Below are positions 15,027 to 56,326 of a DNA stretch of 64,000 nt, one piece after another. The DNA comes from an uncultured virus (IMG/VR IMGVR_UViG_3300026522_000846) (Duplodnaviria; Heunggongvirae; Uroviricota; Caudoviricetes): IMG/VR virus record IMGVR_UViG_3300026522_000846; one strand, 5' to 3'. Each line of letters begins with the position of its first letter. The first letter of the stretch is position 1. The translations under genes were made by a program, and so were the position numbers. The notes beneath the pieces are model-generated. The model was not told the DNA's origin and did not search any database. It saw only the letters and a list, made by a program, of their open reading frames with translations.

Positions 15027-15244
15027 TAATGGAAAATGGAAAGGATCATAGATGTTCGCTCTACGAGCTTTAACTCTTCGCCTAATGGAAAGGATCGTAG
15101 ATCCTTTCCTAGGAACGATACTACCGTATCGTTCCATTTTGTGAAACAAAGGCTCAGATCCTTTCCTAGGAGTGGATCTGAGTCATCGCGTAGCGATGAC
15201 GAAGAGTTAAAGACTATAAGTCGAACATCAAAGATCCACTCCAT
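15027..15244. repeat. Large nested palindrome cluster (intergenic)
   Basis: Several GGA..TCC hairpins joined by CCTAGG with nested modules; 94 bp identical to 49359-49452 and 69 bp identical to 27456-27524. Confidence 0.95.
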
Positions 15245-26709: not shown

Positions 26710-28425
26710 GTGATGTTTGATTTTGATAAATTCTCTGATGTGGATAGCACAACGACATGTTGTAGCAAAAAACCAATTACATATGATAGCAAAAAACCAA
26801 CGATATGTAGTAGCACCATCAGCGATATAAAAAATACCGAAGAGGAAGACGACATGGCTGAAAGCCTTGCCAAGCAGATGGAAGAACTGAACAGAAAGAA
26901 TGAGGAGTCGAACCGGCGTCTTCGGGAACAGGCAGAAGCTGAAAAGCTTAAGAGAGAGAAAGAGGAAGAAGAGCGTGTCCGTGAACTTGAAGCTGCCGTT
27001 GTAAAGCAGAAGATAGATAAAGAAGCGGAAGAGCGGAAAGCGTTCTATGAAGAATTAAAGAGCGAATATGAAAAGGATAAATCCGAGGCTCGCTCTGCGG
27101 AAAAGAAACAGAGCATATTTTCCGCATTTCTCTCACCGAAACAAAAGGCGAACGCCAAACCGACTAATTCTTCCAAAGTTCGTTCTACAAATTCTAAAAA
27201 GCAAAAGGCTTCCAAGTCAGGCGATTTGTTGCCTGACAAAAAGGCAAAGAAACAGACAGATGATCCCTTGAAACGGCTTATACCTTCTGTTCTGAAGAAT
27301 AAATCCGGTGACTCTCCAAATAACTCTGATACTGAAAAAGAGCCTGAAAGCAGGAATGTCGCTGATGAATGGAACGGTTCTGAAAGAACCGTTCCTAGGA
27401 GTGGATCTGAGTTATCGCAGAGCGATAACGAGGGGTTAAAGACCGTAGGTCGAACATCTGAGTCATCGCGTAGCGATGACGAAGAGTTAAAGACTATAAG
27501 TCGAACATCAAAGATCCACTCCATCGAAAAGCCTGAAAGCGAAGAGTTAAAAACTGTTGAGAATACTGTATCGCAGAATGGAGTGGATCACAGATCCACT
27601 TCTAGGAGTGATGCAAAGCATCACTCCATTACCGAGACTGTACCTCAAACCGTATCTCAAAAGGATGAAAGTCCGAAAGACGAAGAGTTAGAGATCGAGA
27701 ATCGAACGCCTGAACCATTACAAACAGATGAACCTTTGCAGAACGAAAGCGAAGAGCCAAAGACTACGCAAACACCTGTTCCAAAAAGCAACTCAATGTT
27801 TGATGTCTTCGGTAGTCTTACGAAGAAGAATGCGAAGAAGCCACCTGTCAAGGCAACAGTCGAAGATAAGCCGAAACTTGGAAAGAAGTACCCTGAAAGA
27901 AACCTTGTGCATGAAAACAAAGAAGAAAAGAAGCTTAAGGAACTTCGGGACAAACTATATCCGGGCAATCTTGAATTAGAGGGTAGCAAAGATAACGAGG
28001 TAGAAGTAAAAACCGAAGAACCCGATGATGACTATCTGGCATGGCAGAAACGGATCGCCGAGAACGAGACCAGATTGAGTGCTGATAAATACCGCAGTAT
28101 GCTTCATGATGTGCAGGAAAGAAGGAATGACGTTGCTGCCATAGCACTCATCACAGCGGATATGAAAAACCTCATCGTAATAAAATCGCTCGATGAGTTC
28201 TTCCAATTCGTGGAAGGCAGGAATTATGACGTAAAGCTTGCTTATGCGTTCGTTGTCTATAAGCACGAAGATCCGCGGTATTACCTCGAAGTACCGAACG
28301 ATCCGCATATACAGGGGATAATGAAGTCGCTCTACGACATGATGATGCACAATTCGGTCATTGTACCGGGTTTGATAGCGAAGATACCGAACATCGGTAT
28401 TTTCGAGAACGTATATTTCAATTAA
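26710..28425 (+). CDS. Coiled-coil/low-complexity protein whose central region is built from palindromic repeat modules
   Basis: 571-aa ORF (alternative start 26854); 27367-27630 encodes WNGSERTVPRSGSELSQSDNEGLKTVGRTSESSRSDDEELKTISRTSKIHS. Confidence 0.7.
   Translation: MMFDFDKFSDVDSTTTCCSKKPITYDSKKPTICSSTISDIKNTEEEDDMAESLAKQMEELNRKNEESNRRLREQAEAEKLKREKEEEERVRELEAAVVKQKIDKEAEERKAFYEELKSEYEKDKSEARSAEKKQSIFSAFLSPKQKANAKPTNSSKVRSTNSKKQKASKSGDLLPDKKAKKQTDDPLKRLIPSVLKNKSGDSPNNSDTEKEPESRNVADEWNGSERTVPRSGSELSQSDNEGLKTVGRTSESSRSDDEELKTISRTSKIHSIEKPESEELKTVENTVSQNGVDHRSTSRSDAKHHSITETVPQTVSQKDESPKDEELEIENRTPEPLQTDEPLQNESEEPKTTQTPVPKSNSMFDVFGSLTKKNAKKPPVKATVEDKPKLGKKYPERNLVHENKEEKKLKELRDKLYPGNLELEGSKDNEVEVKTEEPDDDYLAWQKRIAENETRLSADKYRSMLHDVQERRNDVAAIALITADMKNLIVIKSLDEFFQFVEGRNYDVKLAYAFVVYKHEDPRYYLEVPNDPHIQGIMKSLYDMMMHNSVIVPGLIAKIPNIGIFENVYFN
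27367..27630. repeat. Large nested palindrome cluster, in-frame in CDS
   Basis: ggaacggttctgaaagaaccgttcc-ta-ggagtggatc[four nested modules]gatccactcc; a further pair at ~27578-27630. Confidence 0.95.
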
Positions 28426-31054: not shown

Positions 31055-33094
31055 ATGAGGTATTTACTGATAGCTGAAAAACCAAGCCTTATGCGTACCA
31101 TTCAGGACGTATATAAGAAGCACAAAAGCGAGATCGGGTATGACTGTGACTTTCTGGCACAGGCAGGTCACATCATGCGGCTGAAACAGCCCAAGGAACT
31201 CAACTCGAAATACGGAAAGTGGACAAGGGAAAACTATCCTATGGATCTGACCTACTGTTATCGGGTTATCGAGGGCAAGGAAGAACTGTATAAGAAAATC
31301 AAGACCGCCATAGAGTTGGGGAAGTACGACAGGATAATCCATGCAGGAGACCCCGATCAGGAGGGAGAGCTTTTGGTACGGCTTCCGCTCATGCACATGA
31401 AGAACACACTGCCTATTGACAGGTTCTGGTCAAACGACCTGACAGAGGGTGCGGTGCTTTATGCTCTGACACATCTTAAGGACGACAAAGAGTTTGACGG
31501 ATATTATCAGGCAGCTCTTCTGCGTCAGCACATGGATTATCAGTACGGCATGAACCTTACAGGCGTTATGACGCTTGCTATGGGTCCAGTAATAAAGATA
31601 GGGCGTGTGAAAGCACCGATCATACATATCATTGCTGCAAGGGAAAAGGAAATCGAGGACTTTGAACCGCATAGCGATTATGTGCATGAAGCCAACGTGA
31701 AGGGTTTCCGATTCCTTGGTGAGACGAAATATACAACAGACGCTGAAGCAAAGAAAACGCTTCCCTCGAGGTTTGCTATTACGAGTGTGACTGATAAGGA
31801 AACAAAACGGAAAGCGGGAAAGCTATATAAGCTGTCCACCTTGCAGGCCGCTGCGTCATCTCTGTACGGATTTTCAGGAAGTAAGACACTTTCCATTTGT
31901 CAGAGTTTGTACGAAAAAAAGTACACTTCATATCCCAGAACAGACTGTGAATATCTCGCAAGCCATACTGATGCAGAGGGCATTTTGCGGAATCTGGGTG
32001 ACAGGATAAATCTCTCGAAATATCCGTTGCGGAAGATAGGGGATGTAAAGAAAGACGGTTCTTACTTCAATGATAAGGCGATCGGTTCAGAAGGACATAC
32101 CGCTCTGATCCCGACAGGTGAGATACCGAGAGGATTAAGCGGTGATGAAGAAAAGATATTCGATCTGATCTTGCGGAAATTTGCAAGTATCTTTGGAATG
32201 CCAAAGACGGTACGAACCGTGAAGGCTGATGGTGTGAGCGAAAGCAGAGAGAAGTATTCCATGACCGCAGAGGAGGTTCTTGATCCCGGATTTGAGCTTA
32301 TTCTGAATCCTGATTATAAAGGCTCTGTATGTCCGAAAGAACACTTAACAAAGGGTATCTGCGATTCGAAAGACGTTACCTTTGCCACACATGAGATCAA
32401 GGCAAAGTGTCCGAACAGATATACCGACGGTACACTGATTTCCGCTCTTGACCATCCGGTGAATCTGTCAAAGAAACTTGATGAGAATGCAGATGAGACG
32501 AGCGACTATAAGATCGGTACTCCTGCTACAAGGTCGAACATTATTGATGACTGCATAAAGACAGGATATTTCAGGAGAGATAGGGGAAAGTTCGTATGTG
32601 AACCCCTCGCCATGACCTTAATGAAACAGCTTGGATGGGTAAAGATATTCGATATTCAGACCACTGCAAAATGGGAGCATGACCTGTCGAGAGTAAGAAA
32701 CAATGAAGAAACACCGAAGTCAGTCGAAAAGACAATGATGGACACTCTTGACGAGACGATAGATGAAGTGCTTCATGCCGACATCAAGAAGATCGCCTCC
32801 GGCTATCCCGGCGGTAAGCGGACTCCGATCGGGAAGTGCCCTCTTTGCGGTGGAGACGTGTATGAATACACAAAGTCCTTTGGATGCAGCAACTGGAAGT
32901 CGAAGGGTTGTCCTTTCACCCTCTGGAAGAGAAGTTTCATGGACTATTCTATCACAAAGACCGATGCCAAGAAACTGATCGAAGGAAAGACCATCAAGAA
33001 GGTCGTCACATCGAAGAAGGGCAATCATTGGGAACAGGAACTGTTCTATAACAAAGACACGAACAAAGTTGAATTTTACGGATATAAGAAATGA
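31055..33094 (+). CDS. topB: Type IA DNA topoisomerase (Topo III-like) with C-terminal Zn-ribbon/C-terminal repeat
   Basis: LLIAEKPS, AGDPDQEGE, GRVKAP, YTSYPRTD, IGTPATRSNII, CPLCGG...FGCSNW. Confidence 0.92.
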   Translation: MRYLLIAEKPSLMRTIQDVYKKHKSEIGYDCDFLAQAGHIMRLKQPKELNSKYGKWTRENYPMDLTYCYRVIEGKEELYKKIKTAIELGKYDRIIHAGDPDQEGELLVRLPLMHMKNTLPIDRFWSNDLTEGAVLYALTHLKDDKEFDGYYQAALLRQHMDYQYGMNLTGVMTLAMGPVIKIGRVKAPIIHIIAAREKEIEDFEPHSDYVHEANVKGFRFLGETKYTTDAEAKKTLPSRFAITSVTDKETKRKAGKLYKLSTLQAAASSLYGFSGSKTLSICQSLYEKKYTSYPRTDCEYLASHTDAEGILRNLGDRINLSKYPLRKIGDVKKDGSYFNDKAIGSEGHTALIPTGEIPRGLSGDEEKIFDLILRKFASIFGMPKTVRTVKADGVSESREKYSMTAEEVLDPGFELILNPDYKGSVCPKEHLTKGICDSKDVTFATHEIKAKCPNRYTDGTLISALDHPVNLSKKLDENADETSDYKIGTPATRSNIIDDCIKTGYFRRDRGKFVCEPLAMTLMKQLGWVKIFDIQTTAKWEHDLSRVRNNEETPKSVEKTMMDTLDETIDEVLHADIKKIASGYPGGKRTPIGKCPLCGGDVYEYTKSFGCSNWKSKGCPFTLWKRSFMDYSITKTDAKKLIEGKTIKKVVTSKKGNHWEQELFYNKDTNKVEFYGYKK

Positions 33095-34687: not shown

Positions 34688-34975
34688 ATGGTACTTGAAC
34701 TTGACCGTATTGAAGAACTGACAAATGACGGCGTGCTCGACCACAGTATTCTGGACGGCGTAAAAGCCGTTCAGGAGATGATGATAGAGAACGATCGAAG
34801 TGAGAACATTGAGGACGAAACAAGAAATGGAACGAATGTAAAGCATTCGTTCCTAGGAACGAACCAAGGGTTCGTTCCATTAAATGGAACGGTTCTTTCG
34901 GAACCGTTCCTAGGAGTGGATCAAAGATCCACTCCATTAAGCGATATTGAAGAGGAGGAAGCATGGCAGAGATGA
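34688..34975 (+). CDS. Small acidic protein, about 40% encoded by four palindromic modules
   Basis: GAAGGTG RBS; NGTNVKHSFLGTNQGFVPLNGTVLSEPFLGVDQRSTPL. Confidence 0.55.
   Translation: MVLELDRIEELTNDGVLDHSILDGVKAVQEMMIENDRSENIEDETRNGTNVKHSFLGTNQGFVPLNGTVLSEPFLGVDQRSTPLSDIEEEEAWQR
34826..34938. repeat. Four concatenated palindromic modules, in-frame in CDS
   Basis: Two CCTAGG-joined pairs linked by ccattaaatgg; 67 bp is the exact reverse complement of 49448-49514. Confidence 0.95.
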
Positions 34976-38492: not shown

Positions 38493-38667
38493 GGATATAA
38501 TGCTTTCTTTTTTCTAAAATACATATCGCATCAATTTCGTTTCGATTTATAAGGCATACCGAAGTATGCCTTATTTTTTTTGTTTTTAGGCAGATTTTTT
38601 TCGTTAGATTTTATTCATAAAAAATGAAGGCTATACTTTTCATATTTTTTAGAAAGGAAAGAGGTTT

Positions 38668-41600
38668 ATGCGAACAAGAAAAGGAAAACCAAAGACGGTT
38701 TTCAAGACGATCCTGAACATGGCATTGGCGATGAGCATAGTTCTGTCGTCAGTTGCCGTTCCAAACGTGGTAAAGCCAATTACTGCACATGCGAAAGCGT
38801 ATAATACTTTAGGTGGTGGTACAGGTAGCAATTATTACCATTTTTCGTACATTTACGATCCCCAAGGTGATGGTATTGCACTACATATTCATACAAATAG
38901 TAATAATGTAGTTGCGATGAATTATCAGAATGACTTTACTTGTTCACGGTCATTTAACCAAAAACTTGAAATGGAAAATCCAAAATGTACGCATACTCTG
39001 GAAGCTGCTATTGGTGACATGAGTGCAGCAACCGGAAGACAGATTGATGTAAACGGTGTATTAAATGACCTTAGGAAACAAGGCTATTATATCGAAGATG
39101 GGGTTCACCATACGCCGGGTATCTGGAGAATAAAAGACGGAAATGGGTTCCGTTATCTTACTTATCTTGATGGAACAGATTGTCCACCTCTTAATGGTCC
39201 TCATTTTGTAGAGACTAAGCACGCTACCTGTACCGAGAGCGGATACGATCTTTGGTCTGACGGCTCACATAGAAATGTGACCTCACCTCTCGGTCACATC
39301 TGGCCTAAAGAATGGACTGATGTCGGAACTCACCATGAGAAAAAGTGCCAGAGAGAGCAGTATGGATGTAACCATACCCTTCTTGATTCCAAACCGCACA
39401 GATATGAGAAGACTAACGGCTACGACTACATTGACGATAAAAACGATGCCACTCACCACAGGGTGTGCGTGGACTGCGGTCATATCGAGACGGATAATCA
39501 CCATTTTACGAAATGGGAAGACGACTCCACTAGACCCGGATGGCAGATACGTCACTGCGAGGGATGCGGTTACAGGACATGGCGTGATGTTGAACCGCCC
39601 AAGGTGATGATCTATGCATCCAAGTCGGGAAAGTGGACGGCAGGCGATGTAAAGATCACGGTACAGGCATGGGATCAGGGTTCAGGCCTTAAGCTCATTC
39701 GCCTTTACAGAACCAATAAGTACACAAAGGAAGTTCAGCAGGTAAAGTCAGGGGTGTTCAAAGGTCAGACCGACTGGCAGAGCATAACCTTTACCGAGAA
39801 AGAGGAAGGCGAATGGACATACAGTGCTAACGCGTTTGATATGTGGCACAATCTCGGCGAGGGTGTATTCGTAAAGAACGGAAATGAAAAGAAGTCTCTG
39901 CTTGAGACCTATAACAATGCTGACAAGACAAAGAAAAGCACCGATGATGTGAAACTTGACCATAGCGATCCTACGCAGGATGTAAAGCTGAACGGCAAGA
40001 ATGCGAAGTCGACCGTCAAGACGGGAACGCATGAGGTCTATCACCCCGGCGAGGAAGCGACGATCACTGAAAAAAAGACCGTACCGAAAGTTCCTGTATA
40101 TGAAGATGTCGCAGACAAGATAAAAGGCAAAGCTGTGGAAGAGAAGTACAATACCATCACATATAATCTTGACGGCGGCGGGTTCTATGCAGACGCTCCG
40201 ACCGAATACATAAACGGAAAAGAGACCTCCATACCAAATCCTCAAAAGTCAGGCTATAAGTTCGGCGGATGGACAATAAAGTGTGACGGTAAGACAATAA
40301 GGACAGGCGAAAAGGATGCCGTGATCTCGGCAAAGTCTTCTGGTAATCTTGAGTTTACCGCCAAATGGATCGGCACTTACGGAATCATGTTTACAAGCCT
40401 TCCTGATGACACCGAGGGCGAGATGAAGGACATCGGCGTTACGGAGATAGAGATGGGCAAGCCTTATAAGCTTCCCAAGAGCCAGTTCACATCTCGTGGC
40501 TATAGGTTCGTAGGATGGAACACAGCATATGACGGCACAGGAAAGCACATAGATGATGAGGCAACGGTGCAGGATCTGACTGACAGATCCCAGTCGAACG
40601 TCATTCTCTTTGCCGAATGGGAACCGCTCGAATATGACATTGTATATGACATGGGCGGTGGCACGGATGCTGAAAATGCCGAGATCCTGAAATATAATGA
40701 GGAGCATAAGGTTTCGTTTCCCAAAACCCACACCTATGACACCGAGACCATTATTCCGAGACCGGTTCGTAAAGGATATACCTTTGCGGGATGGACTGTG
40801 GATGGAGGAACGGAAGGGTATGCGGATGTGAAGATCAGTTCCAAGTATCAGAAAAATGTATCTTTATCCGCGAAATGGAAGAAAAATGAAGTAAGAGATG
40901 ACAGAATCTTTGAATGGGATACGAATTATGGTCATGTGAAGGCAACCATTGGAGAAATCGTCCGTGCAGACGGAACATTTTATTCTGTAGATACGACAGA
41001 AGATCCCGGTGCAATAGAGAACCACAGAACCGCAACTTGGAACCAGTATCCGAGAACCTATGTCGTTTATGTATCCCTGCCGAGCCAGTTAAGTAACGGT
41101 CGTTATCGTGTCTTTCTTCCTACATGGAAAGATTCAGGAGACACACCCGCCGGATGGGATCAAGGTCAGGATGATCTGATCTGGTACGGTAAGGATGATG
41201 CTGACAGTCTGATTGGTTTTGTTCCGACAATGCCGAATGGTGCGACATGGCCTAGTGCTTATAATTCTCAGTATCGTGCTAGTAGCGGCATCGGTTGGGA
41301 ACGAAATGGCGATCATTTTGATTATGCTCAGCTTATAGATGGATATAGTGATACGACACATAGTTCCAGCTCTGGAGTTACGCAGAATTTCAGATGGGAT
41401 TGGGTATATGATCCAAACGGGGATTGGGTATATAATCCAGACGGCAATATATCTTGGACGCATACCGATCTCTATGTATATGATACGCAGACAAAAAGCA
41501 TACTGCAAAACGCTTACGCACACGTTTCGAACGACTATGTGCGTACTCCACCATGCTTTGGTGAGATGAAGTATCAGCTCCGTGGTCATGTATTTTACAA

Positions 41601-41832
41601 CAATAACGATGGCAGCGACGCAAAGACAGATCGAATTATGGACATCAATATGGACATCATTCGTGCTGATATTCCAGAGCAGATTCGTTCTAATCCGACC
41701 AGAAATGGATATACATTCATTGGTTGGGGAACTTCTGCTACTACGGACACGATCTATAGCAAGTGGAATTGGCGACCACAACGCGATCTGAACTTATATG
41801 CTCAATGGATGCAAAACGCTATTACATTGTAA
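38668..41832 (+). CDS. Secreted adhesin-like protein with Cys/His repeats, InlB B (Listeria-Bacteroides) repeats and a GBS Bsp-like segment; C-terminus lies on an invertible segment
   Basis: Signal peptide; repeated ITYNLDGG...PxKxGYxFxGW...LxAxW; VFLPTW...GQDDLIWY. Confidence 0.85.
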   Translation: MRTRKGKPKTVFKTILNMALAMSIVLSSVAVPNVVKPITAHAKAYNTLGGGTGSNYYHFSYIYDPQGDGIALHIHTNSNNVVAMNYQNDFTCSRSFNQKLEMENPKCTHTLEAAIGDMSAATGRQIDVNGVLNDLRKQGYYIEDGVHHTPGIWRIKDGNGFRYLTYLDGTDCPPLNGPHFVETKHATCTESGYDLWSDGSHRNVTSPLGHIWPKEWTDVGTHHEKKCQREQYGCNHTLLDSKPHRYEKTNGYDYIDDKNDATHHRVCVDCGHIETDNHHFTKWEDDSTRPGWQIRHCEGCGYRTWRDVEPPKVMIYASKSGKWTAGDVKITVQAWDQGSGLKLIRLYRTNKYTKEVQQVKSGVFKGQTDWQSITFTEKEEGEWTYSANAFDMWHNLGEGVFVKNGNEKKSLLETYNNADKTKKSTDDVKLDHSDPTQDVKLNGKNAKSTVKTGTHEVYHPGEEATITEKKTVPKVPVYEDVADKIKGKAVEEKYNTITYNLDGGGFYADAPTEYINGKETSIPNPQKSGYKFGGWTIKCDGKTIRTGEKDAVISAKSSGNLEFTAKWIGTYGIMFTSLPDDTEGEMKDIGVTEIEMGKPYKLPKSQFTSRGYRFVGWNTAYDGTGKHIDDEATVQDLTDRSQSNVILFAEWEPLEYDIVYDMGGGTDAENAEILKYNEEHKVSFPKTHTYDTETIIPRPVRKGYTFAGWTVDGGTEGYADVKISSKYQKNVSLSAKWKKNEVRDDRIFEWDTNYGHVKATIGEIVRADGTFYSVDTTEDPGAIENHRTATWNQYPRTYVVYVSLPSQLSNGRYRVFLPTWKDSGDTPAGWDQGQDDLIWYGKDDADSLIGFVPTMPNGATWPSAYNSQYRASSGIGWERNGDHFDYAQLIDGYSDTTHSSSSGVTQNFRWDWVYDPNGDWVYNPDGNISWTHTDLYVYDTQTKSILQNAYAHVSNDYVRTPPCFGEMKYQLRGHVFYNNNDGSDAKTDRIMDINMDIIRADIPEQIRSNPTRNGYTFIGWGTSATTDTIYSKWNWRPQRDLNLYAQWMQNAITL
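40851..40879 (+). repeat. Left 29-bp inverted repeat of the putative inverton
   Basis: gaaaaatgtatctttatccgcgaaatgga, encoding KNVSLSAKW. Confidence 0.95.
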
Positions 41833-41850
41833 GAATAAAAGAAGAGTATA

Positions 41851-41885
41851 AAAAGAGAGGAGTCTGTAAAAGGCTCCTCTCTTTT
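41851..41885. terminator. Bidirectional terminator between the two alternative C-terminal cassettes
   Basis: aaaagagaggagtc-tgtaaaa-ggctcctctctttt. Confidence 0.85.
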
Positions 41886-41896
41886 TATACATTTCC

Positions 41897-42482
41897 TTAT
41901 AGCGTTATAGATTTTGTACTTGGCGTGATTTCGTCAAGATTTTCAATATAGACAGATGCAGATGTAAACCATACATTCTGTCCACCGGTATATTCACCAG
42001 ATATACCGACAAACCACCAATCCGAGCCAAGGTCTCCTGCCGTTTCCTTAAAAATTGATGTGTTGTTTGGCACAAATGCGATATCGGTCCCATTGATTAC
42101 TATATGTGGTTTGAAGACCGATGGCAGTCCGGTAAGACGAATTGTGAGTTCGTCCAAAGGTGCAAGATCTCCGTGAGTAATCAGGTTATATGCGTAGGAA
42201 TAAGAGCCGTCTTTTCCGTATGCTCCATCCCAACCATAACGAGGACTTGGACCCATCGCAGACGTATAGTATTCAACGTGTGCATTGTCAAAAATCGTTT
42301 CGCTTGTATCGAGCATGAAAGCAATTTTTGAAATATATGTGCCTGAAACCGTACCACCAGAATGCTCAAATCCTACATATCTGGAATCATCGTAGATATC
42401 GACAGTTCCATTTTCTACTTCCGTAAAAACATTCAGCTTTGGAATATTGAGTGTCCATTTCGCGGATAAAGATACATTTTTC
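41897..42482 (-). other. Silent alternative C-terminal coding cassette for the adhesin
   Basis: Open frame from the right inverted repeat: KNVSLSAKW-TLNIPKLNVF...IAF-MLDTSETIF...TKSITL*. Confidence 0.85.
42454..42482 (-). repeat. Right 29-bp inverted repeat of the putative inverton
   Basis: tccatttcgcggataaagatacatttttc is the exact reverse complement of 40851-40879. Confidence 0.95.
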
Positions 42483-42512
42483 CGCGCCTTTACCCATCCT
42501 CATAGAATTACT

Positions 42513-42549
42513 TTCAGAGCAGAGAAAAATCTCTGCTCTGTTTTTTTTG
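42513..42549 (+). terminator. Intrinsic terminator
   Basis: cagagcagag-aaaaat-ctctgctctg followed by T-run. Confidence 0.75.
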
Positions 42550-42637
42550 TTTTTACACATAAAAAAAATGAAAGAAGTTCTGCGAATTTAATTTTTACTC
42601 ATAAAAATAGAAAGAGGCTAGCTAGAAAGAGGCTTTT

Positions 42638-43678
42638 ATGGAATACGAAAGAATATCACAAATTCGGTTGAACGAACTGATAGAACAGGCAAAGACCGCA
42701 GGTCGACCTTTAAATCTGTCAGGGTACGACCTGTCAGGACTGGACTTAAGGAATCTGAATCTGTCCGACGCTGACTTTACGAACACAAAACTTAACAGCA
42801 CGGATTTTGCGGGAGCGTGTCTTAACAGAGCGGATTTTTCAGGTGCTGTTGGGGACTTTGTAATGCTTCATAATGCGGTCGGAACAGGAACATTGTTCTC
42901 CGACGTAAAATTCAGGAACGGTTTTTGTTACGATGCCGACTTTACAAACGCTATCTTTACCAATGCGAGCCTTGTGTCCTGCTGTTGGGAGGGATCAAAT
43001 CTTGACTATTCGTACTTTGACGGAGCGGATCTAAAGAATGCGTCTTTTGGAGAAACATCACTTGAAAGAACCGACTTTACGGGTGCAAACATCACCAATA
43101 CCGATTTCGAAAAAGCTAGGAACGATAGTTACATTACGTTCAAGAACGCAAAAGGGGAATATACAAGCTTCAAAAAAGCTATGTTCGTTAATGCGGACAT
43201 GACAGGTCTTTCTGCAAAACATGCCTGCTTTTCCGGAGCTGACCTCGAAGAAGCCGACTTTACGGGTGCAGACCTTGACTGTGCGTTTGCGTACGGCGTG
43301 AATTTTGCAAGAGCCAACTTCTCAAAAACCAATGTTCACGGCATGGTGTTTTCGAACGCAAATCTCGAAAAGACAACATTCAGAGACGCTGACCTTACAG
43401 GGACACGATTCCAGACGGCAAAGATCGAAGGTGCTGAATTTATGAATGTTGACCTTGCAAGAGCCACATTCAAAGACGTTACCGTAAAGGACACGGAATT
43501 TAAAGACGTAAAGAACTTAAGCCTTGCTGACAATCCAGATTTAGCGGTAGCGGTAACAAGAGACAAAATGTCGCTGTCAGGAGTGGTGCAAAGTGCATTA
43601 AAGACTGTAAACGAAAACAAAGAGTTAAAGACTGAAAGCAAAACAGATGATGAAGAATTGATGTGTGAGAGGAGATAA
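42638..43678 (+). CDS. Pentapeptide repeat protein
   Basis: Continuous ADFTG/ANFSK-type repeats. Confidence 0.9.
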   Translation: MEYERISQIRLNELIEQAKTAGRPLNLSGYDLSGLDLRNLNLSDADFTNTKLNSTDFAGACLNRADFSGAVGDFVMLHNAVGTGTLFSDVKFRNGFCYDADFTNAIFTNASLVSCCWEGSNLDYSYFDGADLKNASFGETSLERTDFTGANITNTDFEKARNDSYITFKNAKGEYTSFKKAMFVNADMTGLSAKHACFSGADLEEADFTGADLDCAFAYGVNFARANFSKTNVHGMVFSNANLEKTTFRDADLTGTRFQTAKIEGAEFMNVDLARATFKDVTVKDTEFKDVKNLSLADNPDLAVAVTRDKMSLSGVVQSALKTVNENKELKTESKTDDEELMCERR

Positions 43679-43679
43679 G

Positions 43680-44672
43680 ATGACTTTTGATGAGCACATA
43701 ACGCAGGAAATAGTCAATAATGAAATCGAACGGCATAAGCACTGGCTGAATCGTGACTGCGAGGGTTGGGAAGAAATGCGGGGCGACTTCAGAGGGCATG
43801 ACTTTACCGGCATGGACTTTTCAAACGCCGATCTGTCCTTTGCAAGATTTGAGGATGCAACGCTTGAATGTGACACCTTCAGGAACACGAACCTTTACGG
43901 AGCTGACTTTACAGGCGTGATAGGTGACAGTATCGACTTCACGAATGTTAATGCGGAAGAGGCGAACTTTACGAACGCATGGCTCGACAATACGGATTAT
44001 TCAGGAGCGAACCTCAAAAACTCAAAGTTTGTTGCAGCCGAGATGAACTTCTGTAATTTCACAAAAGCTGATATGACAGGCGTTGACGGACACTGCGATC
44101 CTCCGCATGACTGCTATGAGATGGAAGATCAGGGACTGACAAATGATGATGTTAAACGAATGCGGACGTATTTTGATGACTGTATGTTTGCGTTCACAAA
44201 GATGAATGGTGCTAATTTGAAAGACGCATTCGTTCGTAATACCGACTTTCATAATGCTGAAATGAATAACGTCAACCTGCATTCCGCAAACCTCTGGAAT
44301 TCACGATTCAAGAGCGTGACGGCGAAGAACATGGATATTTCCAATACGACACTAGACCATGCAAAGATACACGACTGCGACTTCGAGGGCGTTAACGTCA
44401 AGTGTGCCGAAGGAAAGTATGTTGATTTTTCAAATACGAACCTTACCAATGCAACATTTGTTGATGCAAGGATAGAGTATTCGACATTCGACAGGACTGA
44501 CATGACAAAGACCAATGTAACGTCAGCACATATAGCAGAAGCTACCGTGATCGATTCTAATTTTGAAAGCGAAACAAGCAAAAATGCTTTTTGTCTTGAC
44601 GCAAAACTTATTGCAAACTCGAACGGATTTGTCCGGGGAGAGAGAAGACCGTATGGGCAGATGCAAAGATAG
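43680..44672 (+). CDS. Pentapeptide repeat protein
   Basis: AGGAG RBS; ITQEIVNNEIERHKHWLNRDCEGWEE cap followed by repeats. Confidence 0.9.
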   Translation: MTFDEHITQEIVNNEIERHKHWLNRDCEGWEEMRGDFRGHDFTGMDFSNADLSFARFEDATLECDTFRNTNLYGADFTGVIGDSIDFTNVNAEEANFTNAWLDNTDYSGANLKNSKFVAAEMNFCNFTKADMTGVDGHCDPPHDCYEMEDQGLTNDDVKRMRTYFDDCMFAFTKMNGANLKDAFVRNTDFHNAEMNNVNLHSANLWNSRFKSVTAKNMDISNTTLDHAKIHDCDFEGVNVKCAEGKYVDFSNTNLTNATFVDARIEYSTFDRTDMTKTNVTSAHIAEATVIDSNFESETSKNAFCLDAKLIANSNGFVRGERRPYGQMQR

Positions 44673-44707
44673 AATCAATTTTTATTAAATCAAAGAGGTA
44701 ACAAATT

Positions 44708-45652
44708 ATGGGAAAGAAAACAGTAGTAACACAGAAGAACATCGATGCAATAATAGAAAATCATCAGCTTTATCTTGATGACCGTGTTGAAAATATCAAC
44801 TTTCGTGCGGTTTTTTCAAACATGAAGTCTTATGGTAAGAGAACAGAAGAATGCCGACACCTTGACTTCAGTAACAAAGATCTCACTCATGCCGAGTTTG
44901 AGAACGTAAAATTTCCGCACTCCAACTTCTCGGGTACTAATCTTTTCTGTGCAACATTCAAGAACTGTGTCTTTGATGAGTCGGACTTCAGCAAGACCGA
45001 TATGAGCCATGTGACATTCATCGACTGTCAGATGAGAGATTGTTCTTTCAGGAATGCAACACTTTATGATACCTCGTTCATATCCTGTGGTAAGAGACCG
45101 CTTGACTTTACAGGGAGTAACTTTGACGGCGTAGATTTTACTCATTCAGAGTTAGATGACGCACTTTTCCGGAGTTGCAGCTTCGACAAGACCGACTTCA
45201 CCGAATGTAATGTCGTCAAGTGTGATTTTTCGTACAGCAAGTCGGAAAGTGCGAAATTCTATACTTCCACATGGGATAGAGTCAATATGCGTGGAATGCT
45301 ATTAGATGAGCCGTATTTCATTTATACCTCATTATGCAACGTAAACATGAGAGAATGTGGTGTCATCTCTCCACATATACATGATACGGTCTGCATACTG
45401 AATGGCGATCATGTCACACTCGATGAGCTGATAAAGCGAAAGAAACATTCGGGTGCAGGTGATGGTGGTGACGTTGACGGTGGCATGGGCGAGAAAGAGC
45501 ATATCATGATCCTTGTTCCCAAAAAGAAAGAGGAAGAGAAACATGAAGACTTCCCGAAAGAACAGGATGACACATATGACTATCTCTTTAGACGAGCCAT
45601 GATTGAAGAAATTGAAGAAGAACACGAAGATGAGGAGGACTGGGAACGATGA
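44708..45652 (+). CDS. Pentapeptide repeat protein with acidic tail (..EEDWER)
   Basis: VTQKNIDAIIENHQLYL cap followed by repeats. Confidence 0.9.
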   Translation: MGKKTVVTQKNIDAIIENHQLYLDDRVENINFRAVFSNMKSYGKRTEECRHLDFSNKDLTHAEFENVKFPHSNFSGTNLFCATFKNCVFDESDFSKTDMSHVTFIDCQMRDCSFRNATLYDTSFISCGKRPLDFTGSNFDGVDFTHSELDDALFRSCSFDKTDFTECNVVKCDFSYSKSESAKFYTSTWDRVNMRGMLLDEPYFIYTSLCNVNMRECGVISPHIHDTVCILNGDHVTLDELIKRKKHSGAGDGGDVDGGMGEKEHIMILVPKKKEEEKHEDFPKEQDDTYDYLFRRAMIEEIEEEHEDEEDWER

Positions 45653-46725: not shown

Positions 46726-46821
46726 ACCTCTCTCTACCTTTTGTTTTTAATTTTATTCATAAAATAATACGAGAACAAAAAAGAATTGTTTGCCCTTAAA
46801 GGCAAAAGAAAGTGTGAAGAT

Positions 46822-48033
46822 ATGAAAACCATAAGTGATGAAGAACTGAAAAAGATAATAGAGGATCATCAGCACTATCTCAAAAAGGATGTTCCGAACT
46901 GGGAAAGCATGAAAGCAGACTTTACGGACATGGATCTGTCCGGAAAAGACCTGTCAGGTCAGGATCTGACCGAAGCAACATTCAATAGAACACGTTTAGC
47001 CGATGCTGACCTTACAAACTCTAATCTTTCCCGCACCGTAATAAACAATGTTTATGCGGATGGAGCAAAACTTAACGGCGTTACTATGGATCATACAATG
47101 ATATTTGATTCTGCATTCAGGAATGCTGACCTGACCGATGCAACAATATCCAACGGATCTAAAATAGGAAAATCCGCATTTACCAATGCGGACTTTACCA
47201 ATGCAAATATCTCTGCGACAAAGATCATCAAAGATAATTTTTCAGGCAGTAAATTCATACATGCTACGATCAGAGACATTGAAGAAATTGAAGAAAAGGA
47301 TCGCACAGAGATTTCCGACTCCAAATTCAAGAAGGCTGACCTCACCAATACCAAAATCAATGGTGTTGAAATCAGCGACACCAACTTCACAGGTGCAAAG
47401 CATATCAATACTGCCGAGTTTACAGGCAGTACTATCGCCGGTGCTATTGTTGATAAGGCGACCGATAACGAAATATTGAGTAAGATCAATCGGGAAGATG
47501 CCGGTTTCAATTATAGCAAACATTATACCGTAAAGGATGTTATCACAAAGACGCTCAACACCAATCCCATCTATCAGACTGTAAGAAAGCACGCACAGAA
47601 CTTCGTTAATACTGCTATTACTTACGGCAAACATGTGTATGACAGACTTGCGAGTATGGTAAAGGGAATGGGGAAAGCCATCTCCCACGTTCCTATTCAT
47701 GCACGGCTTGCCGTTGCACATATTAACAAGTTCGGCACAAGCGTTGACAGGTTCAAGAACGAGATTATGGCAAAGATAAACAATGCCGAAAGAGGTCTTC
47801 TTTCAAAGACTGCCAATAAGATGAAGGAATACCTTGATGGTGAAGCCTCAAGGTATGCAGAGTATGCAAATGCGTATGATGAGAAAAAGGGCAACAACAC
47901 CATCAGGGGAAACAATCTCGATAAAAAGATCGAGTCTCTCCAGTCGCAGTTAAAGGATAATAAGGAAGAGCCAACGCCAGATGTACCAGATGGATCAGAT
48001 AGAGATGAAGAAGATTATGGACTCGAACTTTGA
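46822..48033 (+). CDS. Pentapeptide repeat protein with helical C-terminal extension
   Basis: ISDEELKKIIEDHQHYLKKDVPNWES cap followed by repeats. Confidence 0.9.
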   Translation: MKTISDEELKKIIEDHQHYLKKDVPNWESMKADFTDMDLSGKDLSGQDLTEATFNRTRLADADLTNSNLSRTVINNVYADGAKLNGVTMDHTMIFDSAFRNADLTDATISNGSKIGKSAFTNADFTNANISATKIIKDNFSGSKFIHATIRDIEEIEEKDRTEISDSKFKKADLTNTKINGVEISDTNFTGAKHINTAEFTGSTIAGAIVDKATDNEILSKINREDAGFNYSKHYTVKDVITKTLNTNPIYQTVRKHAQNFVNTAITYGKHVYDRLASMVKGMGKAISHVPIHARLAVAHINKFGTSVDRFKNEIMAKINNAERGLLSKTANKMKEYLDGEASRYAEYANAYDEKKGNNTIRGNNLDKKIESLQSQLKDNKEEPTPDVPDGSDRDEEDYGLEL

Positions 48034-49293: not shown

Positions 49294-49514
49294 AATGGAA
49301 CGAATGTTTTACATTCGTTCCATTTAATGGAGTGGATCTTTGATGTTCGACTTATAGTCTTTAACTCTTCGCCTAATGGAAAGGATCGTAGATCCTTTCC
49401 TAGGAACGATACTACCGTATCGTTCCATTTTGTGAAACAAAGGCTCAGATCCACTCCTAGGAACGGTTCCGAAAGAACCGTTCCATTTAATGGAACGAAC
49501 CCTTGGTTCGTTCC
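49294..49514. repeat. Large mosaic palindrome cluster (intergenic)
   Basis: At least six GGA..TCC hairpins; blocks identical to 15068-15161, 15200-15244 (reverse complement) and 34856-34922 (reverse complement). Confidence 0.95.
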
Positions 49515-49642: not shown

Positions 49643-52600
49643 TCAATCTTTCGTTTTCAGGAACGAACTCATCCGTTCTGCACCAAATACCGCTATTCCG
49701 GAAAGCAGTACAGCGATCAGTCCTGCATAGGAGCCTCTTGCATATCCCGTCTTGGGTGATGTACCCTTGATATGCTCACCTGCTTTTGAGATGTCGTGAG
49801 TGCTTTCAACGCTTTGTGTTTCAGGTACAGCCTTTACAGGTGCAGCCTTTACGGAGAACGCTCCGTTCTCCGAAATACCATAAGCAAAACGGAATGCTAT
49901 GGTGTGTGTTCCTGCAGCAAGAGTCTTAAGATAGTCCTTATGAAGCGTAGCTATGGTAGAGCCTGACTTAAGGTCAAAATCACTTCTTGACACGACATTT
50001 CCATCTATAAGGAGCGTGTCAAAATATTCAAGAGATCCATTTGCCTTGAACGTGAGGTCAGAAGGAAGGGCATTATCAAATACCGCTTTATCTCCATCCG
50101 TAATGTGAAGCAGGTTTTCGGCTATTGCCATATCCGGAATCATATCAGCATATGCCTTATCATAAACGGTCTTTGCGTCAGTCAGAACGGCGTTCTTATT
50201 TGAAACATCTTTCTGTTTTTCAGACACCGTTTCTTCCGCTGTAACAACATTCTTCTTTTCAAGAACAAGAGTGTCGTTCAACTTACCTGATTCCGTATTC
50301 AGATGAATGAGATAGTCAAAAAGCCTCTGTTTTTCAGCCCTTGCTTTAGACTCCCTGTCCTTGGCATTTGAAAGAGCATCTTCTTTATCCAAAATGTTCT
50401 TCCTTGCCTTTACGGATTCCTGATAAGCGTTTGCTTTTGCCCTTGCAACAGACTCGGCATCTGCCTTGGTCTTTGTGGCACTGGAAACAGCCTTTGCTTC
50501 CTCTTCGACATCAGCCTGTGCCTTGGTGACCGCATTGGCAGCCGTCTGAACATCTGCACCTGCCTTTGCTACGGCAGTATCGGCATCGTTCTTTGCCTTG
50601 GTCTTTTCATTGACCATTTCCCTTGCCTTTGTTGCTTTTGCCTGTAATGACGGAATAGCTTTTCCGCTGACAACATCATCGAAAGTTGCTTTTGCATTGG
50701 ATTCTGCCTGTTTTGCATTGGTAAGAATGGTGTTTGCTTTCGACTGATCTGCCACCTTACTGTCATAGAGTGCCTTGGCATTAGCTGTGATAGAATCGGC
50801 TTTCGCTCTTACGTTCTGCACGGCAGTATCATAGGCGGTCTGCTTTGCCTTGGTGTCTGCTTTAGCAGTATTCAGAGCGGTCTTGGCATTGGTCAATGCG
50901 GTTTCTTTCTCCGCAAGGACGCTCTGTGCAGATGTCAGAGCAGTTGCCTTTTCGGTTGCTATCATCTGCTTATCGGAAAGGGCAGTAGCAAGGGTAGTTT
51001 TATTCTTTTCCGCTTCAATCTTTGCCTTCTCTGCCTTGGCAAGGTTTGCCTTGGCAGTATTCACGGCAGTTGTCAGGGAGTCTATATTATTGCCTGCCTT
51101 TGCCTGATCGAGAGCATTCAACTTTTCAGAAAGGGTTGCTTTTGCATTATCCAGTTCAGCTTTTGCCTTGGAGAGGGCAGTATTAGCTGACTCTGCTTCC
51201 TTCTTGGCTGAATCAAGGTTTGCATGGACTTTGTTATAGTAGGCATCAAAAGAAGCCTTATAGGTATCATAGGAAACGCCAGGAATCACATGACCAAAGT
51301 CCTGTACTTGGGTTGTCCATTCATTACGCTCATTGACTGCTAAACCGGTAGATTTTTTATCCCTGTAATCATTATATTTAGTGAGATTGAGATAATGACC
51401 GGTGTTGTTATAATCATTGATATTAAACGCTTCTGTGGCGATATGAGCATACTTGAACTGACCATTTTTTACGGCTTCTTTTGCAGCATTATTGATTTCA
51501 TCTTTGGTCGCATCTGGATGGCTTTTTTTATAATTTTGGATGAATTCGTAAAATTCTTTTTCCTGATAATACCATCCATAATAAGGGTCATGCTTTGTAA
51601 ATAAATCAGAGTCGGATTCATTATCCATTACATCGTTGGAATATCCCCATGCAGCATTTTCGCCACTTACTCTGGAATACCCATATTCCCCTGATGATGG
51701 CATCCAATGATATTTTGTATAGGCTTCCATATTTGCAGATGCCTGTGCATACGCCATAGTGGAATCTGCCACGTTGAATGGGGCAAGATTCGGAAAATTG
51801 TTATCTTTCACGATGATTTGATTTCCCTTGCCAATTAAAGCAATGGCTTTTTTCATATTTTCAAGAGAAGTAGCGTCATCATCTCGACCGAGGTAAGTTA
51901 TTCCTTTTTCTGTTGCGGATTTGGTGCTTTCTTTTGTCGTAGAATAAGTTATGATGTCATAAGCAAGTTTGGCGTCATCTTTTTCGGGCTCTGAAAGAGA
52001 AGCGTCATTCATACGACTTGAAAAGAATCCAAGCGATCCCTGTGCGATGACAGCTTCGGCTGCCTTGACCTTGGCATTCGCATCTTCTAATGCTTTCTGT
52101 GCAGTAGCAACTGCATTGGTAGCGTCTGTAACTGCCTTATTTGCATTCTCATATTCCGTCTGTGCAGTCTCAGTTTTACTACCTGCGTTTGAAAGTGCCT
52201 TCTCTGCATCAGTAACCTGTTCCTGTGCAAGAGTGACTGCATCCGTCTTTGCCTTGACATCTTTCTTTGCATTTTCCAATGCCGTTTCTGTATCCGTAAC
52301 AGCCTTGTCTGCAGTATCTTTTTCCGCCTGTGCCTTTGTAACGGCAGACTTGGCATCGGTTACCGCCTGATTAGCCGTTTCATAAGCCGTCTGCTTTTCG
52401 GATTCATGAGCCTTGGCGGTATTCAGGGCTTCCAGTGCAGCCTTCGCCTTGGTCTCGGCTTCAGTCAGAGCTGTATCGGTATTGGTGACCGTTGTAGGAT
52501 TAGCCTTGACTGATTCCATAGCCTTTGCTGTTGCATTATAATCTGCTTTTGCTTTCTCTACAGCCTTTTCCGCTTCGTCATAAGCAGACTGTGCCTTTTC

Positions 52601-53392
52601 AGTCTCTGCCTTTGCCTTCTGCCATTCCTGATAGCTTTCGGTCTGTTCCTGTGTGGTCTTGTTATCCCGAAGGTCGATAGCGTCGGCTAATGCCTTGTCA
52701 GCAGTTGCCTGATTTGCTTTGGCAGTAGCAAGTTCTTCCTCTGCTTTGGACTGTGCCTTGACAGCAGACTCCTTATCATTAGTTGCTTTCTCTAATGCAG
52801 TCTGATAAGACACCAGAACATCCCTTGCCTTTTCTTCTTCTGCCTGTGTCTTAGCAAGATCGGTCTCTGCCTTCTTTAAGGCTTCGTCAGCAGACTGGGA
52901 TTCTGCCTTCCTCTTGTTCAGTATCTCTTCCGCACCTTCAGGATTTGCCTTTTTGATGTCAGATAGAGCAGTAGCAGCAAGAGCAGCAGCCTTTTCGGCA
53001 TTTGCGATTTCATCTTCGTTTGAAGCCTGTGCCTTTTTTGTGTCGCTGATGTCAGCCTTATTCTTTTCGATGTCGGCATTCGTCTTGACCACGGCGTCTG
53101 ATTTTGCTTTCAAGTCAGCTTCGGCATTAGCAAGAGCGGAATCCGCCTTATTCTTTTCGGCAAGGGCATTGTCATAAACTTTCTGTTTTTCGTCAACAAC
53201 GTCTTGTTTTGCTTTCCAATTCGCTTCAGCAGACTGTATGTCTGTCGCAGTATTGATTTTGCTTTCCTTTTCCTGTGACGGACTGTCAGGCTCTTCTGCA
53301 AATACCGGCATGGCATTTATGCTTGCTCCGCTCAATACCGCAGATAAGGCTAATGCCGTCACTTTTGCGATGTGTTTGTTCCTGTTACTCAT
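49643..53392 (-). CDS. Cell-wall-anchored Ala-rich coiled-coil surface protein with central CAP/SCP-like domain (surface-exclusion/PrgA-like)
   Basis: Signal peptide; long A/K/E heptad stalks; GENAAWGY...WYYQEK...TGHYLNL; X2-like Ig domain; SPKTG + hydrophobic helix + charged tail. Confidence 0.75.
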   Translation of the reverse strand: MSNRNKHIAKVTALALSAVLSGASINAMPVFAEEPDSPSQEKESKINTATDIQSAEANWKAKQDVVDEKQKVYDNALAEKNKADSALANAEADLKAKSDAVVKTNADIEKNKADISDTKKAQASNEDEIANAEKAAALAATALSDIKKANPEGAEEILNKRKAESQSADEALKKAETDLAKTQAEEEKARDVLVSYQTALEKATNDKESAVKAQSKAEEELATAKANQATADKALADAIDLRDNKTTQEQTESYQEWQKAKAETEKAQSAYDEAEKAVEKAKADYNATAKAMESVKANPTTVTNTDTALTEAETKAKAALEALNTAKAHESEKQTAYETANQAVTDAKSAVTKAQAEKDTADKAVTDTETALENAKKDVKAKTDAVTLAQEQVTDAEKALSNAGSKTETAQTEYENANKAVTDATNAVATAQKALEDANAKVKAAEAVIAQGSLGFFSSRMNDASLSEPEKDDAKLAYDIITYSTTKESTKSATEKGITYLGRDDDATSLENMKKAIALIGKGNQIIVKDNNFPNLAPFNVADSTMAYAQASANMEAYTKYHWMPSSGEYGYSRVSGENAAWGYSNDVMDNESDSDLFTKHDPYYGWYYQEKEFYEFIQNYKKSHPDATKDEINNAAKEAVKNGQFKYAHIATEAFNINDYNNTGHYLNLTKYNDYRDKKSTGLAVNERNEWTTQVQDFGHVIPGVSYDTYKASFDAYYNKVHANLDSAKKEAESANTALSKAKAELDNAKATLSEKLNALDQAKAGNNIDSLTTAVNTAKANLAKAEKAKIEAEKNKTTLATALSDKQMIATEKATALTSAQSVLAEKETALTNAKTALNTAKADTKAKQTAYDTAVQNVRAKADSITANAKALYDSKVADQSKANTILTNAKQAESNAKATFDDVVSGKAIPSLQAKATKAREMVNEKTKAKNDADTAVAKAGADVQTAANAVTKAQADVEEEAKAVSSATKTKADAESVARAKANAYQESVKARKNILDKEDALSNAKDRESKARAEKQRLFDYLIHLNTESGKLNDTLVLEKKNVVTAEETVSEKQKDVSNKNAVLTDAKTVYDKAYADMIPDMAIAENLLHITDGDKAVFDNALPSDLTFKANGSLEYFDTLLIDGNVVSRSDFDLKSGSTIATLHKDYLKTLAAGTHTIAFRFAYGISENGAFSVKAAPVKAVPETQSVESTHDISKAGEHIKGTSPKTGYARGSYAGLIAVLLSGIAVFGAERMSSFLKTKD

Positions 53393-56133: not shown

Positions 56134-56276
56134 AATTTTGATCTCCTTTTTCTTTGTTTGTATAGAAATTTTCTTCTACATCTTAATTATGCGTAAAATT
56201 TACAGAAAACAGTCAACTATAGAGAAAAATTTCATCCCAACCATCATTCCTGATAACGATACGATTCGTTACAACT

Positions 56277-56326
56277 GGAACGGTTTTGAAGGAACCGTTC
56301 CTAGGAGTGAACCAAAGGTTCACTCC
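56277..56326. repeat. Palindromic pair supplying the sigma-factor stop codon
   Basis: ggaacggttttgaaggaaccgttcc-ta-ggagtgaaccaaaggttcactcc; TAG within CCTAGG ends the ORF (WSEPLVHS*). Confidence 0.9.

Follow-up and report, generated by a model that had tools for sequence, protein, structure and literature searches.

The 64,000 nucleotides (nt) of DNA analysed here (IMG/VR record IMGVR_UViG_3300026522_000846, in the following called the window) belong, judged from their genes, to a large conjugative element from a Firmicute. They carry a surface protein gene whose 3' end lies in a segment bounded by two perfect inverted repeats. This locus is likely an evolved, programmed inverton of the tail-swapping, shufflon type (partial intergenic). 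Crossing-over between the two short repeats would flip the 1.6-kb segment. A constant body of 737 amino acids (aa), ending at a B-repeat boundary, would carry tail A (317 aa) in one orientation and, in the other, tail b (185 aa), which could otherwise not be translated. A central hairpin would terminate transcription in both states. The site-specific recombinase would be encoded outside the window, and the protein would be a surface adhesin of the conjugative element that binds through its tail.

Anatomy of the segment

The two arms of the repeat have 29 nt each, are 100% complementary and are separated by 1574 nt (Table 1). With up to 3 mismatches allowed, exactly two copies of the arm were found in the 64-kb window; dinucleotide-preserving shuffles (n = 100) gave a mean of 0.00. 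In the whole window this pair is the sole perfect inverted repeat of at least 20 nt within 8 kb. The left arm lies inside the 1054-aa open reading frame (ORF) and encodes, by codon arithmetic, residues 729-737. These residues form the last strand of a Listeria-Bacteroides repeat, also known as InlB B-repeat, assigned to residues 702-740 by Pfam (Flg_new_2) and to residues 699-740 by TIGR02543. Membership of the protein in the B-repeat family was clear, with 93.9 bits for Flg_new (PF09479; cut-off 27) and 93.8 bits for TIGR02543 (cut-off 20.95). The swap point coincides with a domain boundary, the end of the B-repeat, according to both Pfam and NCBIfam. Perfect 29-bp inverted repeats, the left one at the end of a B-repeat, had been claimed in a sequence-only reading of this DNA, and the repeat search and the Pfam and TIGR02543 domains bear this out.

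On the minus strand the reading frame starting from the right arm comprises 194 codons, including 9 encoded by the repeat. It is closed 6 codons upstream of the arm. The same reading had described the minus-strand tail as open and in the same frame from the repeat, and the frame is indeed open from 42481 down to the stop at 41897-41899. Its arithmetic holds as well: 737 residues would be shared, the tails have 317 and 185 aa, and the alternative isoform would have 922 aa, with both forms ending in ITL. The in-frame stop at 42500-42502 is predicted to prevent translation from entering cassette b.

Between the two convergent tails a hairpin was found, for which a bidirectional terminator had been proposed. 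The plus-strand part of this proposal was recovered by prediction. The minus-strand part is plausible, judged from a T-rich run that follows the hairpin (41846-41890) when read on this strand. A second hairpin with a T8 run beyond the right arm (42515-42540) is predicted to insulate the downstream pentapeptide-repeat genes.

Table 1 Features of the inverted-repeat locus, its relatives and the surrounding element (window coordinates unless another locus is named)
Feature	Position	Strand	Remarks
Surface protein ORF	38668-41832	+	1054 aa, secreted
Constant body, residues 1-728	38668..40850	+	Signal peptide, Cys/His-rich N-terminal region, InlB B-repeats
Left arm	40851..40879	+	Intragenic, KNVSLSAKW, B-repeat end; homologous arm in L002 at 12451-12475 (NVSLSASW codons)
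Expressed tail A, 317 aa	40880..41832	+	Terminal B-repeat, last residues QNAITL; 42% identical to L017 cassette W
Central hairpin terminator, 20-bp stem	41846..41890		Between convergent tails; called as + strand terminator
Silent cassette b, 185 aa + stop	41897..42453	-	Frame continues from repeat; ends TKSITL
Right arm	42454..42482	-	Outside any expressed gene
Codons upstream of right arm	42483..42502	-	6 sense codons + in-frame stop 42500-42502; L*GWVKAR before KNVSLSAKW
Hairpin + T8 run beyond right arm	42515..42540	+	Predicted + strand terminator
C-terminal motif sites, window	41818-41832, 41897-41914
C-terminal motif sites, L002	12890-12913, 12953-12975
C-terminal motif sites, L017	about 740-758, 825-845
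Order of L017			Right flank + hairpin (93% identity), 29/29 arm, cassette V (208 aa), hairpin, cassette W (284 aa, other strand), second arm
Pentapeptide-repeat genes	16809-17819, 19556-20527, 42638-45652, 46786-48033
Mob_Pre relaxase	24601-25647		Pfam
Topoisomerase	31055-33094		Pfam
1249-aa protein, PgrA/Sec10 surface-exclusion domain	49643-53392		NCBIfam
Sigma factor	56301-57128
Type IV coupling protein	57191-59650		Pfam

Related loci and coding constraint

Database searches with the surface protein gave 48 matches, and only one of them, P0001 (994 aa), aligned beyond the B-repeats. This nearest orthologue, with 40% identity to the constant body over residues 34-738, is encoded at locus L002 of a Lachnospiraceae isolate genome (G001). 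At L002 the arms are perfect over 25 nt (12451-12475 and 13559-13583) and lie on homologous codons. From the arm onwards the minus-strand cassette (Q) stays open up to its last residues, NNSITL, with a stop 5 codons upstream of the arm; the expressed tail (P) ends in NRSITIN. Pentapeptide-repeat genes follow downstream and are syntenic with those in the window. The 144-kb contig C6 of G001 is a rearranged relative of the element in the window.

A third copy of the design was found on L017, a metagenome contig of 1704 bp. Its second arm is identical over the first 22 nt, and the contig ends at the outer edge of this arm. The terminator beyond the right arm is conserved at positions 51-106 of L017, with 93% identity over 85 nt aligned. 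Hairpins equivalent to the central one are present at 12914-12953 in L002 and at about 765-816 in L017, and in both loci a stop stands just upstream of the right arm. Cassette W is a homologue of tail A, and all that cassette V has in common with A and W is the terminal B-repeat. The position of V next to the right flank was considered as proof of inversion. This was rejected, because W is homologous to tail A with 42% identity; L017 is therefore in the orientation of the window, with V replacing b. Three independent assemblies thus carry the same design, and this comparison is the strongest evidence for the inverton.

According to BLASTP, tails b, P and Q are unrelated to one another and to the remaining tails, and the six tails of the three loci comprise at least five unrelated types. 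For tail b the searches among protein records found no longer form among 860 candidates and one near relative among 37; an exhaustive search of 1.84 billion representatives gave one match. This match, P0050, is the sole relative of b, a hypothetical protein of 109 aa with 68% identity to residues 89-194 of b. A two-state switch had been proposed from the sequence. This description suits a single element. It fails for the population, as further cassettes occur among strains (V and W in L017, the b variant P0050), and the repertoire of the population is therefore larger than two.

Further relatives are rare. Of 18 loci found with the repeat core on metagenome contigs, L017 is the one true relative, and the other 17 showed no homologous context. 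The single locus found on viral contigs was rejected as a chance match. Among 401 Lachnospiraceae genomes, scanned with at most 1 mismatch, 15 had a single-type match vs 9 hits for the reversed control, and an arm pair on one contig was found in G001 only. The search for the N-terminal domain in these genomes led to 7 matches, of which only that in G001 was strong. No match to positions 38668-42700 was obtained by megablast against plasmid and phage collections. As a proposed check, further copies of the repeat were searched for: two are present in the 64-kb window and two in the 2.6 Mb of G001.

A shorter relative of the surface protein was observed in a rumen Lachnospiraceae metagenome-assembled genome (L001, 5340-6542). 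It is a protein of 400 aa with 66% identity to residues 1-372. B-repeats and an inverton are lacking there, and the neighbours are housekeeping genes (glutathione peroxidase, hybrid-cluster protein). The N-terminal domain of the adhesin therefore exists also as a stand-alone protein.

All three silent cassettes (b, Q and V) are open only in the frame that is set by the repeat, and the other five frames contain 4-20 stops each. After composition-matched shuffling, none of 20000 sequences was open for each of the three. Counting codons from the repeat, the first start is number 45 in b and number 93 in Q; in V, codon 6 is GTG. Otherwise unrelated, all six tails end in the motif [ST/A]-[IK]-T-[LI], one of them with an extra N after it. 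This shared ending suggests that the C-terminus is under constraint and may serve docking, sorting or strand complementation. Cassettes without a start and closed upstream are kept open with a shared ending, which is understandable only with occasional fusion to the constant body.

Within a locus the arms are identical over 29 nt (window), 25 nt (L002) and 22 nt (L017). Between loci they differ: the arms of the window and of L002 deviate at 3 of 25 positions, and the core common to all arms has 18 nt, with no clear dyad symmetry by eye. Arms that are the same within a locus and different between loci look like concerted evolution, which would therefore indicate an ongoing exchange between the arms. 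The sharply bounded arms of 22-29 nt and the 18-nt core would favour site-specific over general recombination. These sequences directly show how the locus is built, that all three loci share this design and that the silent cassettes are under coding constraint.

The minus-strand frame could also be an independent small gene, with the repeat being incidental. Positions 41897-42316 (-) are listed as an ORF of 139 aa with an ATG at 42316, the record in a protein atlas covers the sequence from residue 56 on, and P0050 is annotated as a hypothetical protein of 109 aa. However, upstream of this ATG another 55 codons without a stop extend back across the repeat, and the frame closes 6 codons beyond it. 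No ribosome-binding site was visible by eye before the ATG, and no promoter-like site was found on the minus strand between the right arm and the next gene. Moreover, the layout with a frame open from the repeat recurs in L002 and L017 with unrelated cassettes. A small gene of its own is hence very improbable.

Orientation, recombinase and function of the tails

Several observations weigh against the reading as a tail-swapping adhesin inverton. No contig, protein record or RNA contig was found that joins the body to tail b, neither in the contigs of the runs, nor among the 860 candidates or the 1.84 billion representatives. The absence of a body-plus-b protein record is weak evidence either way. 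The inversion event itself, as part of the proposed switch, is what we infer from the locus.

The orientation was examined in assembled contigs of public runs only, with words of 31 letters. The runs holding the window stretch were mostly bovine gut metagenomes. All four repeat edges (40879, 40851, 42482 and 42454) coincide exactly with ends or starts of contigs in run X1. Since with 31-letter words and a 29-nt repeat one orientation gives no branching, these breaks need alternative junctions. Against inversion as their source stands that X1-X3 are strain mixtures which also hold an L017-like strain. A joint 40880>41800 was observed with a depth of 142 in X1 and 74 in X2, vs about 4300 and 45 for tail A. 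Its interpretation as a deletion was rejected; it represents a V-type cassette, with which tail A has the repeat plus 1 nt and the final 30-40 nt in common. Together with loose ends at 42538 in X2 and X3 this joint matches cassette V of L017 and its flank. V beside the right flank yields one of the two junction words that would be expected from inversion. The two breaks in X1 that remain would be accounted for by the other junction word, which consists of left flank, repeat and first base of b. At a depth of about 4300, a single-base error or an amplification chimera could also make this word. The breaks in X1 are compatible with inversion, not proof of it.

A loose end at 42216 in X2 and X3 fits P0050 and would mark a b allele with a different first half. 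The word depth in X1 was about 4300-4700 over 38500-44000 in a run of only 592 million letters, and the element makes up a large share of this run. This depth would suit an enriched or amplified extrachromosomal fraction, in which amplification chimeras at short inverted repeats are possible.

In the RNA library X5 one unbroken contig reaches from 38500 to 41857, through the left arm into the hairpin, with a depth of 126. Cassette b had a depth of 10, and 42364-42547 and the right arm had a depth of 0. This is a weak hint that tail A is expressed and b silent in this sample. The RNA contig crosses the left arm in the orientation of the window only, which is a further point on the opposing side.

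No recombinase was found either. The Pfam scan of 81 ORFs of the window, including all 77 of at least 120 aa, detected no recombinase catalytic domain and no match to Resolvase, Phage_integrase or IS110; the 139-aa start form of the cassette was scanned as its 194-aa form. The NCBIfam scan of 21 ORFs was also without a recombinase. The statement of the sequence-only reading that the window has no such gene could be confirmed in both scans. Its suggestion of a switch driven in trans would follow from this negative result. A protein of 526 aa (21741-23321, -) showed weak helix-turn-helix (HTH) matches only, and its PDB sequence search gave nothing meaningful.

In G001 the two copies of the repeat are at this one locus only. 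The genome gave 14 matches to Resolvase, 2 to Phage_integrase (1 above cut-off) and 4 to IS110 (3 above cut-off). Only one of these recombinase matches, an IS607-type Resolvase, is on the element contig C6. No tyrosine recombinase (Phage_integrase) and no IS110/Piv-type match was found on C6, and nothing recombinase-like adjoins the locus in L002. The Resolvase of C6 was rejected as a candidate for the invertase: it is an IS607 transposase with an N-terminal MerR HTH, beside TnpB and about 68 kb from the locus. This IS607-type element (L008 10997-14146, corresponding to C6 70997-74146) is inserted into another IS605-family orfB. It is part of a 5.4-kb insertion, not present in the window, between the sigma factor gene and a gene for a protein of 666 aa. 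The enzyme would either be encoded elsewhere on the replicon or the chromosome, or be of no recognised family.

In a rather speculative extension, the repeat pair would be the crossover site of a so far unrecognised recombinase and also the docking point of an exchangeable cassette library. An unrecognised recombinase is considered because the serine, tyrosine and IS110 families were not found on C6 besides the IS607 transposase. The library is considered because the tails found between this repeat and nearly identical flanks are unrelated from strain to strain, with the C-terminal motif kept in every one.

That no recombinase was found in the 64-kb window and the 144-kb C6 besides the IS607 transposase would also agree with a fossil or rarely used structure. 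An old inverted duplication of the B-repeat end would then have stranded a cassette, and exchange would occur only by occasional homologous recombination or by replacement from strain to strain. No inverted form is on record, and the cassette content varies between the same repeat and a 93%-identical flank, showing replacement. A stranded cassette would decay, yet all three silent cassettes are open in the repeat-set frame (none of 20000 shuffles) with the motif kept. Moreover, the arms are perfect over 22-29 nt in three lineages, whereas the proteins are down to 40% identical. We regard a fossil as unlikely.

The tails themselves also weigh against the proposed function. Pfam assigned no family to tails A, b and those of L002 besides the terminal B-repeat in A. 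Predicted structures were unusable, with a mean pLDDT of 36 for tail b and 30 for tail A. An LPXTG motif was absent from the ends of all six tails, read by eye, and the PDB sequence search with the adhesin gave nothing meaningful. For tail b the protein atlas gave scores of at most 0.89, below the meaningful value of 0.9, with leads including the glycan-binding-like DUF5597 and CBM27.

By analogy, our best guess is a surface adhesin with a tail that determines the binding partners of the donor. The inversion could be real and the protein not a mating adhesin. The tail might then bind plant or host glycans or rumen surfaces, or it might vary to escape phages or antibodies that use it as a receptor. 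The tails without a recognised family beyond the B-repeat, the glycan-binding-like leads for tail b (all below 0.9), the housekeeping context of the 400-aa N-terminal relative in L001 and the bovine gut as habitat agree with such a role. On the other hand, the gene is inside a conjugative element, syntenic with that of G001, and near a PgrA/Sec10-like gene and the coupling protein gene. The plasmid precedents of tail-swapping in the accessible text of a survey also concern the choice of recipients (PMC9881135). A role outside mating is possible but the less likely reading.

Known systems and the conjugative setting

Among working systems, the G segment of Mu and the IncI shufflons are the nearest analogues, but the locus departs from both in segment number and in having no adjacent invertase or Rci gene. 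The G segment of phage Mu and the C segment of phage P1 are inverted by the serine invertases Gin and Cin. As in these phages, the constant 5' part of the gene lies outside the segment, two alternative 3' parts face inside and the repeats are at the fusion point. Inversion alters the distal, specificity-determining end of a fibre-like surface protein. In comparison with Gin, Hin, Cin and Pin, the layout of constant 5' and alternative 3' parts was found, but no adjacent serine invertase with a Resolvase domain and a C-terminal HTH. The crossover sites of that group have 26 bp with dyad symmetry around a central dinucleotide, and a Fis-bound enhancer belongs to the system. The small serine invertase gene of Mu and P1 adjoins the segment, whereas none was found here in 64 kb. 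A second gene pair (U/U') is inside their segments; here there is one coding frame per cassette. The target in the window is a B-repeat protein of a Gram-positive conjugative element.

In the shufflons of IncI plasmids (R64, TP114) the recombinase Rci rearranges the C-termini of PilV, and recipient specificity in conjugation was demonstrated there. The locus described here resembles them, as it is plasmid-borne, would swap the C-terminus of a surface adhesin and has silent cassettes without own starts. In contrast to several segments and many repeat sites, it has one segment and two arms. The IncI systems possess an adjacent tyrosine recombinase and a type IV pilus tip protein and reside in Gram-negative hosts, whereas no adjacent recombinase or pilus genes were found here. 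Compared with the R64 shufflon, the repeat has 2 copies instead of many, an adjacent Rci-type gene is lacking, and the target has Flg_new B-repeats and no pilin family instead of being a PilV.

Piv of Moraxella is a DEDD recombinase of the IS110 family, encoded beside its segment, and swaps the C-terminal coding part of a pilin. The exchange of the C-terminal part of a surface filament protein by inversion is comparable. In contrast, there was no IS110-family match on C6 or among the window ORFs scanned.

Gram-positive conjugation adhesins are represented by PrgB of pCF10 and the thioester-domain adhesin of pLS20, which are wall-anchored. To our knowledge, adhesins of the PrgB and pLS20 type do not vary by inversion. 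The protein described here shares with them that it is a large secreted surface protein on a conjugative element, near surface-exclusion-like genes. Unlike them, it has no LPXTG at the tail ends and no polymer-adhesin or thioester domain according to Pfam.

The locus also agrees with partial intergenic invertons. One arm lies in coding sequence and the other outside, and the gene faces a shorter, startless, pseudogene-like cassette, which is how published surveys recognise such loci. Both features were found in the window, and the opposite, shorter, startless cassette in frame also in L002 and L017. In the accessible text of their surveys, Chanin et al. reported 733 partial intergenic, shufflon-type invertons (PMC10028968). 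The gene-altering inversions predicted by Milman et al. number more than 11,000, with PilV and a pilus/phage-tail fusion among the targets, and Mu is cited in that paper (PMC9881135). Enriched targets named there were PilV, restriction-modification specificity genes, DUF4393 and the pilus/phage-tail fusion (PMC10028968, PMC9881135). The word 'listeria' occurs 0 times in the main text, and one or more of the over 11,000 predictions may be of the type described here. A literature search on shufflons in Gram-positive conjugation gave no such system among the top-ranked records, which does not show absence. The class of switch is already known; the target family and the Gram-positive conjugative setting are new.

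The Gram-positive conjugative context, also suggested by the sequence-only reading, is confirmed by the Mob_Pre relaxase, the coupling protein and the PgrA/Sec10-like surface exclusion domain. Seven pentapeptide-repeat proteins are encoded on the window. Four of them are downstream of the inverton, three of these directly. Upstream of the adhesin gene (38567-38628) and of the next gene (42534-42612) a shared block of a terminator plus a motif was observed as direct repeats, with a T-run and then TT..CTCATAAAAA. A sequence similar to the block motif, TTACTCATAAAAATATGAGAA, was present upstream of the related gene in L001. The shared block may be a promoter type recognised by the sigma factor that the element itself encodes (56301-57128).

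A palindromic motif, GGAACGGTTC...GAACCGTTCC, was detected in intergenic positions at 27371-27395, 34886-34910, 49452-49488 and 56273-56309. The first 42 nt of L017 match repeated sites of the window near 15170-15210, 27400-27490 and 62177-62208. These palindromes and the sites matching L017 look like a family of small repeated intergenic elements.

At 1125-8251 a cluster of defence-like or anti-defence-like genes was observed, with a SocA/Panacea antitoxin domain, a dCTP deaminase-like protein, a TIR protein of the CAP12/Pycsar type and a GmrSD-HNH nuclease. Dam-like and EcoRI-type adenine methyltransferases are in the same cluster. Furthermore, the conjugative element carries a class A penicillin-binding protein (9686-12067, -) with transglycosylase and transpeptidase. 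It is 90% identical to its counterpart on the G001 element, vs 40% for the adhesin.

Tail-swapping inversions are known to determine which hosts the phages Mu and P1 infect and, in Gram-negatives, which recipients IncI plasmids reach. Mating adhesins of Gram-positives are thought of as fixed. An equivalent on a conjugative element of rumen Lachnospiraceae would extend the logic of these switches to Gram-positive conjugation. If an unrecognised recombinase and a cassette library prove true, this would be the first shufflon-like switch of recipient range in Gram-positive conjugation, in the plasmid pool of the rumen. Work on the locus could start from its conserved repeat core, the missing recombinase or the orphan tails, and an isolate with an orthologous locus (L002) appears to exist. 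The locus would give a handle on how plasmids choose their recipients in a dense gut community.

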